DNA of 64,000 bases. Origin: Eledone cirrhosa. Taxonomy: Eukaryota. Shown piece after piece: positions 7,291 through 53,222 of the stretch (position 1 is the first letter of the stretch; every line of letters starts with the position of its first letter). The translations under genes and the position numbers were made by a program. The notes under the pieces are model-generated. The model was given only the letters and a program-made list of their open reading frames with translations, did not search any database and was not told the origin of the DNA. The DNA lies in assembly GCA_964016885.1 (NCBI GenBank), contig OZ024750.1, positions 10,726,001-10,790,000 on the forward strand, given 5' to 3'.

Positions 7291-7516
7291 AACAAAGAAG
7301 GTGTGGTAAGATACCAGGTGGACCATAACGCACCAGAGTATTCAATACTTGGGGTAGTAGAGTGGGTAATAGGAAAAGAGTTAGGACCCCGACGGCTGAG
7401 CTCCGGTCGTTTCGACAGCTAGATACTAACTAAGCCACCACCATACTGGTGGTGGCAGTTAGGATCTAGCTGTCGAAACGGCCGGAGCTCAGCCGTCGGG
7501 GTCCTGACTCTTTTCA
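7291..7516 (-). mobile_element. Family H fold-back element (half-hammerhead hairpin plus ~85-nt tail), copy 1
   Basis: ~55-bp inverted arms containing GAAACGGC...GCCGTCGGGGTCC, with the tail TATTACCCACTCTAC...ACCACACC on the minus strand, next to (TA)n. Confidence 0.85.
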
Positions 7517-10185
7517 TATATATATATATATAATAAAATACCGTATACAGACACACACATACACACACACATATATATATATATATATATATATATATAT
7601 ATATATATATATGTGTGTGTGTGTGGGTGTGTACACAAAAAGTAAACAGAAAGAACAAAACAAACAACACAGTACAATGAAGAAATATCTTAGTTTAACG
7701 CTTGCTATAGTAAGAAAAGTTTTTGAATCGATTGAATTCGATATCACTAACGACGCATATTAGTTCTGGTGCCAATGTAAGAAATTTTATATTTAGTTGT
7801 CACATTCCAGGAAATAATATTTTGCAATTATGTACAAATCTATAATATTATGTTTCAATTAGATCGATGATGACTATTTAATAGATAATATAGATATGTC
7901 TAACTTTATTACTTTTAAATTATCTTAAAGTACTTTCCACTAACCTAGCTTTTACGTTGATTTGGTTTAGATCGAAATAAAACAAATACCAATATACAGG
8001 AATTCAGATTTAAATAGAATAATTTCCAGCAGTATTTCAGTTGATTTTGTTTGCTTTGTTGCAATAAAGTTTATATTAAGTCATCATTATAGATATTTTA
8101 TGTAGACACAAGGACGTACATGTATAGATTATGGCAAATAAAAGATGATGTTAATACATTAGTTGCTTTAGTAAAGAGAAATAGTCAGCTCACTCAGAAT
8201 TCAAGTTTCAGCCCTTAAAAGTTAAGGGCCGAATCACTCGCAATATTCAAATCAATCTAAACCATTTCGTAATATCCCAATCAATTTAAACCACTGCAAG
8301 TTTAGGGTGAAACCCGTAAAAACTAGAAGGGATGTATTAAATGTGTAATATTTTAAAATGAAGCTTCAAGTTATTAAAACATAAATATAGAAGATTTATG
8401 AAAAGCAAAACATATTTGATATATGTTAAAAATCAATGAAATAATAATATACTTATTCTAAGAATAGTAAAAAATAATAATTGTAAGTTAGCTGCATTTA
8501 TAATATACTTTCAGAATTTTATCAGCGTTTACCTCATGTTTTTGATATCGGTATGTTTCTTTTAATTACAGATTATTTGTTTTCATTCGATTTTATTAGA
8601 GTATTATATAATACATATGGAACTTGGTAAATTATTCAGCACTATATCATTAAAATATATTACTAGAACAAATTAAAAGAGAATGTAGGAAAAAGAACAT
8701 TAATTTGGCAAGAGGTTTATTATCTACATAGTTTTTCCCCGGGGAAATTCAAATATTTAATTTTTTTTTGTGTGTGGAATTAAATTAGTTTATCGAAGTG
8801 TGTGTATTAAATTATGGCCTTTCTACTACAAACATTATCCATTGTGTATTTCTGTCTTTAAAGTGGTAGAATGGGTGTTTTTTTGGGGGGGTGGGGTGGG
8901 GGCGGATTTTGCAATTGTTTCCAGCAGTTCGAGGGGACATATAAAGGTCTTTTTTCACTGGTTCGTAACTAAGAAATAATTGGTAGATTGGTTGTAGTAT
9001 AACAAGAAAGGGGGGATGAACGAGATAGATAGATAAATAAATATATATTCTCTTTCTCCCCCCCCCCTCTCTCTCTCTCTCTCTCTCTCTCTCTCTATAT
9101 ATATATATATATATATAGAGAGAGAGAGAGCGAAGAAGGTTCGTTATAGAAGGCTATACCAATGCCGGTCTAACACTAAATATCAATGATGATGTTTGAT
9201 TTAGGCAAAAGGTCAACAATTTTGGGGGAAGGGGAAGGGGAAAGTCGATTAAATTTACCCCCGTACATTACTGGTGCGTTACGGGTTTTGGAAATAATGT
9301 GATTTTAAAATTACATTTCAAATATTATTTTTCTCATAATTGTTCTACGTTTCAACCGCATTTTGAAACTCTAGAACCATTAGACCATTAATGGATTGAT
9401 GGTTTTACTGTAATATCTAGTGTATCGTCATTTATTTGTTTCAGTTCTTGTAAAATCTACAATATAAACGTATGTGTGTATTTGATGGTTGGCTGTCGTC
9501 TGCTTTGAGACACCACACAACCCAACATTTTCTCCACCCCATTGAAAGTATATTCACAAATCACATATAATATAAATATAATTAATCATTCCGAACAGAT
9601 TTAATATTTCAAGCTTAGATTTCTATAATCAATTGAAGGTAGTCAGTCATTGTTTTCGTACGCCATTACATGTATGTAAAATATACTCATGATAGATGCA
9701 CACACGTGTTTATATTATATAAACACAAGCCTGTGTTATTCTGAATTTTGTAGTTTTATAATTTACTATATTATTTTTGCATTTTAGGTTTGTAACGTTT
9801 CAACACAATTTAAAGTGGTTTAGTTTCACATATGAAATTATATTCAATCAGAAATTCTTTCTTTTATATATTTTAAGGTATTGAACCCATACAGACATAT
9901 TAATTAGCCTGGAAAATCCATGTTAATTCCATGTATAAAAATATATATATTTCACTTTAATTATGTTTGGAGAAAATATTTACATTATTACAATTGTAAC
10001 TGTAATGTAGGAGCCACGCCTAAATTAGAGCTTTTCAGATCCATTTTCCCATAAATCGAAGTCTTTCTCTCCCCATATCTCTTTTCCTATATGGATATGT
10101 ATACGTCTCTCTTCCTCTCTCTCGCTCTCTCACTCTCTCTCGCTCTCTCACTCTCTCTCTCTCTATATATATATATATCGACAGG

Positions 10186-10382
10186 CGATCGACTTTCGTC
10201 AAATCGGACCGAGGAAACAATGTTTCCGTTGGTCTTTCCAACTACTAATACAATCTATTGGTCACAACTCGAGGTAGAAGGAGCAGCGTGAAATAAAGTG
10301 TCTTGCTCAAGGACATAACACATCGTCCGGTCTAGGAATCGAACTCACAACCTCACGATTGCGAATCCAATTATCTAACCAC
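10186..10382 (-). mobile_element. SINE B copy
   Basis: Reverse complement of the 19269-19480 element. Confidence 0.85.
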
Positions 10383-10524
10383 ACACACACACACACACAC
10401 ACACACACACACACACACACACACACACACACACACACACACACATATATATATATATATTGAATTCCCATAGGTAAAACACAATCAACCATAGGTGGGC
10501 ATCTTTGTCTTTCATTTTTCTCAT

Positions 10525-10575
10525 GACAGGCTGAAGAAATTGGGGCCCAGAACCCAACGTACTTGAGTAACTGTC
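10525..10575 (+). ncRNA. Decayed hammerhead (GAAA box mutated), family K copy 2
   Basis: GACAGG-CTGAAGA-AATTGGG...CCCAAC-gtac-TTGA-GTA-ACTGTC. Flanks are also homologous to about 5697-5792. Confidence 0.65.
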
Positions 10576-50170: not shown

Positions 50171-51119
50171 CTTTCCGTTTTAATGATGGCAATGGCTCAC
50201 TTATTTGTAATTATCCCAACGTAATTATGAAATTGCTTTGACAGTCACATACATGAGAGTGTAATGGAGACCTGGGAGCTGTGACATACAGGCAAACCTG
50301 CAGCCATACATACAGACAGCCATACATACAGACAGCCATATATACAGACACAGCCATACATACAGACACAGCCATACATACAGACACAGCCATACTTACG
50401 TACATACACCCTGATGTATATATATATATACATACTCTAGTGCACGTACATATGCATTACACATTCATATATATATTCACATACACACACATACACACAC
50501 ATATATATATATAGAGAGAGAGATCCGTCCGTCCACATATATATATATATTATATATATTCACCTACACACACATATATATATATAGAGAGAGATCTGTC
50601 CGTCCATATATATATATATATATATATATATATATATTATATATATTCACATACACACACATACACATACACACACACATATATATATATATATATATAT
50701 ATATAGAGAGAGAGAGAGAGAGATCCGTCCGTCTATATATATATATATATATATATTTGCATGTGCACACGAATGCGTGTACATAAACAAACACACACAC
50801 ACATATATATATATATATATATATATATATATTTGAATGTGCTTTGTTTCTTATCGTGCACATGGACTGAAAGACCACATCATCCACACACACACACACA
50901 CACACACACACACACACACACACACACACACACACACATACACACACACACACACACACACACACATACACCCCCCCCCCCCACACACACACAGAGAGAC
51001 AGACAGAGAGAGGATAGCTGGAACATGGACGCATCCTTTTTTTCACGGGAGTATGTTGTACCGGGCGTGTGTCTTAAGCAAATTGGATGAAGTGTGGCTG
51101 GCACGTTTTCTGAGTGAAA

Positions 51120-51782
51120 CAGGGAGAGACTGAGAGAGAGAGAGAGAGGAGAGAGGATAGAGAGAGGGAGAGAGATAGATATATATAGAGAGAGATAGAT
51201 AGATAGAGAGGATATATATATATATATATATATATATATATAGAGAGAGAGATAAGGGGGAAAGACAGACGAGAGCGCTAAAGTAATGAGAGGCTGAGAG
51301 ACAGGGCGATAATGAAAGTGATACAGATATTGAGTGAAACAGTGAGAGAGAGAGAAAGGGGAGAGAGAGAGAGAGAGAGAGGGGGGGATGGGGGGTAGAA
51401 AGAAGGAGAGAGAGGGGGAGAGAAGGAGAGAGAGGGGGGAGAAGGAGAGAGATAGAGAGGGAGAGAGGGGGAGAGAGAGGGAGAGGGAGAGAGAGTGGAG
51501 AGAGGGGAGGAGAGGGAGATAGAGGGAGGAGGGGAGGAGAGGGAGATAGAGGGAGGAGAGGGAGATAGAGGGGGGAGATGGAGATAGAGAGGGGATAGAG
51601 AGGGGAGGGGGAGGGAGATAGAGATAGAGAGGGGAATGGGAGGGAGAGATAGAGATAGAGAGGGAGAGGGAGAGAGAGAGGGAGAGAGAGAGGGAGAGAG
51701 AGAGGGAGAGAGAGGTAGAGAGGGAGAGAGAGGTAGAGGTAGAGAGAGAGGGAGAGAGAGAGAGAGGGAGGCAGAAAGAGAA
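51120..51782. repeat. Polypurine (GA/GGA) tract
   Basis: About 660 bp of almost pure purine on the + strand. Confidence 0.9.
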
Positions 51783-53020
51783 GGTGGTGGCGGTGAAGAG
51801 AAGAGCTAATATAGAACAACAATGATTAAATCTACTGGCAGAGTTTAATTTGTGGTGCAATTTAAGAGAAATTAAGCCATTAGTTTTGTGAAACTATTAG
51901 CTTAGTTTCAGGCTATTATATGATGGATATACGTCTTTGTTCATGATGGACGACACACACACACAGAGCGAAAATCCGTGTGTCAGCCTCCCATACCCAT
52001 TTAACAAGTCTACTGCCATAACCAAAATCTCCGCAGCTGGAAGTACCTGTGATGTGTGGCGATCAGGGAATCAGGGGAAGTGATTTCATGAAGGAGATGT
52101 AGATTATTTCCTTATTAAAATAGATTAGTGTTAAAACTACTCGGAAGCAAACATTCACAGAATCATAACCCCCCCCCCCCCCCCTCTCTCTCTCACCCTC
52201 TCTCACCCACCATCTCTCACCCTCTCTCACCCACCATCTTTCCCCCCTCTCTCTCTCTGTTATTTAGTCTCTCCTTCTCTCGAGAATTCCCTCTCTTTGA
52301 AGACACCTAACTGGACGTATGAGTCTTATCATGAAAACCTCAAAGATCAAGTAGAATGACCAGCGTCGGAATAAACACACACTCATACTTATTTCTCTGT
52401 ATGTATGTATATAGGAAGGCACAAACACACACATACACGCACCCCTCCACACACACACATATATATATATATATATATATATACACACACACACACACAC
52501 ACACACGCACCCCTCCATACATATATATACGTACACAAACACATATATATATATATATATATATATATATATATGTGTTTGTGTACGTATATATATGTAT
52601 GGAGGGGTGCGTGTGTGTGTGTGTGTGTGTGTGTGTGTGTGTGTGTGTGAGTGTATATATATATATATATGTATGGAGGGGTGTGTGTATGTGTGTGTGT
52701 GTGTGTATATATATATATATATATATATATATATGTGTGTGTGTGGAGGGGTGCGTGTATGTGTATATATATATATATACGTGTATGTGTATATATATAT
52801 ATATAGACAAATATATATATATATATTTATGTTTGTGTGTGTATATATATATATATATATATAAAATATATATATATATATATATATATATGTTTGGGGG
52901 GGTGCGTGTATATATATAATATATATATGTTTGAAGGGGTGCGTGTATATGTATATATATATATATATATATTATATATTATATATATTATATATATATA
53001 ATATATATATATATATATAT

Positions 53021-53222
53021 AACAAAATAAAGGTGTGGTAAGATACCAGGTGGACCAAAACGCATCAGAGTACTCAATACTTAGGGCAGTAGAGTGGGTA
53101 ATATGATAAGAGTCAGAAGCCCGGCGGCTGAGCTCCGGCCGTTTCGACAGCTAGATCCAAAATATTCGTATCTAGCTGTCGAAACGGCCGGAGCTCAGCC
53201 GTCGGGGTCCTGACTCTTTTCA
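53021..53222 (-). mobile_element. Family H fold-back element, copy 10
   Basis: Hairpin plus tail inside (TA)n. Confidence 0.85.

Follow-up and report, generated by a model that had tools for sequence, protein, structure and literature searches.

The window studied here is a 64,000-nt stretch of the Eledone cirrhosa genome (GCA_964016885.1, contig OZ024750.1, positions 10,726,001 to 10,790,000 of the forward strand), and it holds ten insertions of a short palindromic repeat that we call family H. Each H insertion very probably consists of two complementary DNAs (cDNAs) that were primed independently and joined head to head. H derives from a Hydra-type Penelope-like element, of which it repeats the end that bears the hammerhead. 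We further propose, with slightly better than even confidence, that the two cDNAs stopped where the element RNA is predicted to have its 5' end. If this is true, strong-stop-like cDNAs joined head to head account for tens of thousands of palindromes in this genome that look like miniature inverted-repeat transposable elements (MITEs).

The ten insertions lie between 7298 and 53225 (Table 1), all of them within (TA)n as a preliminary description of the window had it; nine have two arms, and one, at 41509-41577, has a single arm. Signed positions are counted in ribozyme sense from the predicted cleavage C of the GUC site (0). An intact arm reads stem II 3' strand, GAAAC, GGC-loop-GCC, GTC and GGGGT, which is indeed the order of the 3' half of a type I hammerhead that had been reported; the window has 11 occurrences of the GAAAC-stem-GTC motif, whereas 100 shuffles gave 0.16 on average and never more than 2. 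As type I hammerheads, however, these short copies (minis) lack the CUGANGA-type box: none of the ten contains CUGANGA, as already noted, nor CUGAGAA or UUGAGAA. An Rfam scan of the window gave 545 matches; the 150 of them that were listed include no hammerhead, only microsatellite-driven matches of microRNA type. The tail stands in (TA)n as described, but measures 80 nt (+18 to +97) rather than about 85. The opposite arm, on which the stem I and stem II 5' strands had been seen in place, is the reverse complement along its entire length, so these apparent strands are not independent evidence; the main parents carry ACCCC before the box and G(A/C/T)TCGGCTA after it.

The way in which the arms are paired carries the first claim. 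Pairs were taken from 514 kb of unselected sequence (20 pairs) and from the first 50 exact palindromes of contig 1. Among these 70, 65 combine a tailed with a tail-less arm, one has two tailed arms, none has two tail-less arms and four are of undetermined type. The 3' ends of H are fixed at +17 and +97, and TAT comes next in the parent at both. At the other end, the tailed arm reaches further 5' in 27 of the 65 tailed and tail-less pairs and the tail-less arm in 25, with 13 ambiguous. In 6 of 30 two-armed insertions, a count that omits two more complex cases, the tailed arm halts before the GAAA box (-6 to +20) and its partner, which includes the box, reaches -29 to -73; copies 5 and 9 of the window are examples. 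The junction is blunt or shares 1-2 nt in 42 of the 70 pairs. Long insertions have the same head-to-head layout, with kilobase arms, the tail at either end and the axis far from the ribozyme.

The preliminary description had offered another mechanism, in which one cDNA snaps back on stem II and copies itself. Extended by later central deletions that scramble the axis, palindromes being prone to asymmetric ones, such self-priming would fit two observations. Of 58 pairs, 26 could not be typed; in 31 of the other 32 both arms belong to the same subfamily, where chance would give a fraction of 0.23. This agreement counts for the two-cDNA reading as well, but may only mirror subfamilies active at different times. 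Inserts of at least 6 nt copy local sequence in 18 of 24 cases (a set that includes query-biased loci), as brief local re-priming would. However, self-copying must yield a second arm nested in the first, which is contradicted by the tail-less arm reaching further in 25 of the 52 informative pairs, and also at locus L145, where a tail-less arm of about 4.7 kb opposes a tailed arm of 1.3 kb. The six tailed arms that never get to the GAAA box, the loss of the parent stem II loop from most junctions and the position of the kilobase-arm axes also stand against it, and the second arm would need to stop at +17 each time. We regard snap-back as largely refuted and improbable. Nor is the idea undescribed, as had been supposed, since self-priming is already in print for Penelope head-to-head palindromes in rotifer elements (PMC3846280), a reading against which the H data argue.

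The pairing data instead correspond to two cDNAs primed at cut strands and fused by end-joining. This agrees with in vitro work on Poseidon_Ac (Frangieh et al. 2024, PMC11167929), where both strands of an AT-rich target are cut and extended, two internal reverse transcriptase (RT) starts bound the tail, and unprocessed, uncleaved RNA is used as the template. In H both starts lie at TAT, which allows pairing with the (TA)n target, whereas the Poseidon_Ac study found no homology; in its available parts, that study addressed neither the joining of two cDNAs nor a fixed 5' stop. In H, natural products number in the thousands and share a signature that can be counted: one arm has the tail, the other lacks it, and neither is nested in its partner. 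This signature speaks for paired priming at the two cut ends rather than for self-priming.

The parent of H is a 3.53-kb Penelope-like element with an RT, a GIY-YIG endonuclease and an entire hammerhead in its pseudo-long terminal repeat (pseudo-LTR), which bears out the suspected link to Penelope. Its open reading frame (ORF) P0001 (717 aa) shows, by inspection, YRDD-type RT motifs and the YIG/R/E/N motifs; it has 2,049 homologues, of which the 120 listed share 38-54% identity, and Pfam and PDB searches with it returned zero matches. A peptide of the GIY-YIG C-terminus gave 61,156 first-look candidates genome-wide, and many of the 150 scored stand in frames of 784-819 aa. With a gap of 35-65 nt between box and arm there were 102 matches, and 9 of the 100 listed are, by eye, intact CUGAGGA hammerheads with a long stem II; CUGANGA at most 34 nt from the arm gave 67 matches, with no convincing parent among the matches listed. 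The intact hammerhead at L076/L101 sits 1.2 kb below a GIY-YIG-type C-terminus. Pseudo-LTRs from tandem and partial-tandem copies, an inverted truncated copy and a tail, as in Penelope-like elements, are all present, and the parent ribozyme has the three helices round the core boxes and the NUH site of a type I hammerhead. Parent units form tandem and inverted arrays, and two adjacent units are identical at 3531/3531 positions. With identical units and open frames the parent family looks very young, although an effect of the assembly may be involved. Arrays of at least five 3.53-kb units with open 784-aa frames are found at L140-L142 (G000:C1:437.198-437.215 Mb) and at L143. Near parent copies, at L101:3-863 and L109, there are also a second, different GIY-YIG ORF (Pfam PF01541) and LINE-type ORFs.

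P0001 carries DKT, CxCX5C, CxxC and CxH (around E and N), a C-terminal endonuclease and no CCHH, and its target is (TA)n. These are the marks listed for the Hydra clade of Penelope-like elements, which also share a pseudo-LTR hammerhead (Craig et al. 2021, PMC8557442), and the parent is provisionally placed there on this match. It differs from that clade in having RWR for RWK, a length of 3.53 kb with a 1.2-kb 3' untranslated region (UTR) against under 3 kb, and a mostly non-canonical box (U3-A8 or C3/A8). The listed family Hydra-1_Obim, compared by eye, is not the same element, as its N-terminus and ribozyme differ.

With this parent, H is not a DNA MITE or a fold-back DNA transposon, just as the preliminary description had preferred. 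H is short, palindromic and of high copy number and lies in TA, as a MITE would; however, it is a fragment of a retroelement's pseudo-LTR and ORF start, and equal terminal inverted repeats, a fixed interior and a transposase partner give way here to unequal ends, a centre that varies from copy to copy and a retroelement parent. We give this explanation practically no weight. In genomes of this kind, palindromes that resemble MITEs and are abundant may have arisen as by-products of retroelements.

The parent ribozyme varies in its core. Box and stem II start occur together at 4,772 genomic loci; by eye, the first 100 comprise 69 UUGAGAA, 30 CUGAGAA, 1 UUGAGGA and 0 CUGAGGA. The parent reconstructed earlier, GGACCCC-CUGANGA-GACAGC, is close to an older, decayed subfamily, the only one with GACRGCT after a canonical box, but does not describe the main parents. 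Likewise, the exact pattern that had been suggested for a search (GACCC[C]CTGA.GA with GAC[AG]GCTA) gave 10 matches against 3 in the control, of which at least 4 are decayed old relatives and the rest unrelated. In a midpoint-rooted tree of 68 upstream UTR pieces, whose root is uncertain, CUGAGGA copies are dispersed among C3/A8 copies and U3-A8 forms a short-branched group. The youngest subfamily folds to the three-way form; the C3/A8 subfamily favours a rival hairpin. Among the parents at L027, L141, L176 and L183, the order C3/A8, then U3-A8, then an extra stem II pair in the youngest subfamily suggests that the ribozyme may have been impaired and then restored during amplification; in any case, the core varies across families that went on amplifying. 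The Penelope minimal hammerheads (Cervera and de la Pena 2014, PMC4209133) are likewise type I with a long helix II, a short helix I, a palindromic loop 3, the U3-A8 covariant and nearby opposite-strand motifs; the H parent differs in a stem II of about 50 nt with the likely start site inside and in a large subfamily with a mismatched C3/A8 core. At L353:2884, one of the 15 long arms described below, which bears an ORF, starts at the predicted hammerhead cleavage site, which is no proof of cleavage.

The second feature that needs explanation is the fixed 5' stop. Among 60 unselected anchor-carrying arms in the 514 kb, 51 end at -33 to -44, and where the end is unambiguous the mode is -40. We lean, by a small margin over even, to the view that this stop is the 5' end of the element RNA, which in H would fall within stem II. 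The A at -40 stands in an initiator-like context (TT-A-GTCC), and across 25 parent variants an AT-rich run begins 29-31 nt upstream. TATA spacing and the initiator consensus were used for this comparison.

Alternatively, the two separately primed cDNAs may have been stopped by an early RT stall, either at the stem II helix or where a protein of the element itself binds the RNA, which is possible but distinctly less probable. The stops start just beyond the lower stem II helix (-33 to -35), cover 12 nt and tail off within the loop; stem II has compensatory changes (5 pairs with both partners altered, a count reached by 1 of 500 shuffles, in 10 related rows only); and the Poseidon protein assists its ribozyme, hence binds nearby (PMC11167929). 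However, a sequence-bound stall should recur one unit later. We collected 20 stretches and 7 loci, kept the 15 in which an arm runs across the whole ORF and enters the repeat upstream, and dropped the 12 without such an arm; at the next hammerhead, 14 of the 15 read through, one ends at 0 and none at -33 to -44, thus the stop is not a plain ribozyme stall. Moreover, neither subfamily fold beats shuffles (z 0.40 for the youngest parent).

The sister family F, likewise of Hydra type, also speaks against a stall. Its head-to-head minis give 15,721 matches genome-wide against 17 in the control, and their hammerhead is whole and canonical. Most F arms (22 of 26) end 3-7 nt above the intact box and the other 4 read through, which means that no paired structure remains there on which to stall, all helices being unwound. 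F parents have a TATA box, TATAAATA, 30-32 nt above the arm-end point, and one of them leads on to an ORF that shares 51% identity with P0001 across 453 aa. In F the two 3' ends lie about 55 and 134 nt from the stop; the corresponding distances in H are 58 and 138 nt. A putative TATA box and initiator have also been reported in Penelope pseudo-LTRs (PMC3846280).

Several findings weigh against a stop at the RNA 5' end. In its simplest form this view requires full-length copies, too, to end at -40 in the repeat upstream, and 0 of 15 do so; it therefore has to invoke either a further class of template or a strand jump. The H ends are dispersed over 12 nt, with a few out to -52 or -73. The presumed TATA is a good match in just 6 of the 25 parent variants, is absent in one subfamily, and the run also serves as a stem II strand. 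A cap-type extra G was seen at 8 of 14 ends against 4 of 22 controls (p 0.03), a weak signal confounded by templated inserts, and at other loci at 6 of 12 against 2 of 10 (p 0.20). Finally, in D. virilis the start site of Penelope is upstream of the ribozyme (PMC2377424 with PMC4209133).

We propose that H arises as follows. The RT-endonuclease, probably a dimer, would cut both strands of a (TA)n tract, and, with uncleaved RNA as the template, synthesis would begin at +17 from one cut end and at +97 from the other. The two cDNAs would halt near -40, the predicted RNA 5' end, and host end-joining would fuse them with an overlap of 0-2 nt or short templated inserts. Since the predicted transcription start at -40 is inside stem II, this RNA end would hold just the 3' half of the ribozyme, and the half-hammerhead would be explained without any fold-back. 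The short templates may be transcripts fired from thousands of genomic 3' pseudo-LTRs; the Penelope pseudo-LTR holds a promoter and can fire into the flanks (PMC2377424), so many genomic 3' pseudo-LTRs could supply such templates. Long copies may derive from multimeric or circular RNA. From the sequences, we see about even chances for a more general scheme: Hydra-type elements would start reverse transcription 55-140 nt from the capped RNA 5' end and make strong-stop-like cDNAs at both break ends, the palindromes would map the transcription start, the H leader could not cleave in cis although downstream copies could, and long copies would depend on a strand jump or on RNA templates that are circular or multimeric. 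The H ends would then yield a nucleotide-level prediction of the RNA 5' end.

The genome has 3.0 Gb and is rich in microsatellites. An exact 16-mer from the H arm occurs 70,198 times, against 0 for its reversed control, and exact palindromic junctions with at most 30 nt between the arms occur 15,747 times. Read-through into the box at the first encounter amounts to about 7% (4,772/70,198), a rough figure as the two patterns differ. Contigs from sequencing runs have the same strand-switch joints and TA ends, a type of data that says nothing on the RNA start. Considering that minis outnumber read-through copies about 14 to 1, that both priming sites lie within tailed arms and that some junctions recur, it might be supposed that the minis propagate themselves like short interspersed elements (SINEs), the palindromes being transcribed and recopied in trans. 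However, recurrent junctions are present in both mirror forms, and the minis follow the parent subfamilies and lack the predicted upstream TATA, which makes this origin very unlikely. H minis crowd side by side in a single (TA)n tract at L005, L012, L039, L157 and L206, as expected if every insertion leaves a new target.

What looks new in H is the fixed stop inside stem II, since Penelope elements are already known for inverted truncated copies and for the tail. The known inverted 5'-truncated copies (PMC8557442, PMC3846280) are also head to head, with a tail at one end and no clear target duplication in microsatellites. Their tail is 30-40 nt long against 80 nt in H, and, unlike them, H has both arms stopping within one narrow site, so that no fewer than 15,747 palindromes of MITE-like appearance result. 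Non-LTR retrozymes (bioRxiv 10.64898/2026.07.22.740005) are likewise non-coding derivatives of Penelope pseudo-LTRs, but consist of head-to-tail repeats that each hold a complete ribozyme, whereas H minis are head to head and without the box. No description of a fixed-stop palindromic mini-family was found in the open literature, a search that did not extend to Repbase, Dfam, subscription papers or bioRxiv supplements; the available parts of the octopus repeat annotation (PMC13282606) and of the retrozyme preprint describe no such family. The origin of inverted ends, tails and tandems in Penelope is named as an open question by the cited papers.

Table 1. Copies of family H and of its sister family F in the window
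Feature	Position	Strand	Structure
H copy 1	7298..7519		tailed arm - (7298-7424), 37-nt insert, tail-less arm + (7463-7519)
H copy 2	14576..14773		tail-less arm - to -36; tailed arm + from -40; blunt junction
H copy 3	18609..18807		tailed arm - to -36; tail-less arm + from -40, the longer-reaching one
H copy 4	30392..30600		tailed arm - and tail-less arm +, both to -40; 7-nt locally templated insert between
H copy 5	30984..31182		tail-less arm - crosses stem II loop to about -73; tailed arm + from -6, without GAAA box
H copy 6	38345..38542		tailed arm -; tail-less arm + with small internal deletion
H copy 7	41509..41577	-	lone tail-less arm, like older subfamily (parent box canonical CUGANGA)
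H copy 8	48404..48599		tail-less arm - to -34; tailed arm + from -40
H copy 9	48874..49029		tailed arm - ends at +14, short of ribozyme; tail-less arm + from -52
H copy 10	53021..53225		tailed arm -, short insert, tail-less arm +
F head-to-head mini-copy	48722..48845		complete hammerhead in both arms
F mini-copy	53237..53363	+	abuts H copy 10; complete hammerhead, CUGAUGA at 53315

The window has further small features. On the minus strand at 39875-39931, a third family is represented by an entire type I hammerhead with CUGAUGA at 39926, a long stem II and a TA-rich stem III, which has relatives in L057 and L092. Another small repeat in (TA)n, with the core GTCGAAAC, has two copies at 5836-5955 and about 23315-23400 and occurs also at L140; it may be a further Penelope end. 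At 31563-31610 there is a possible minimal hammerhead with a U3-A8 type box, from a single regular-expression match.

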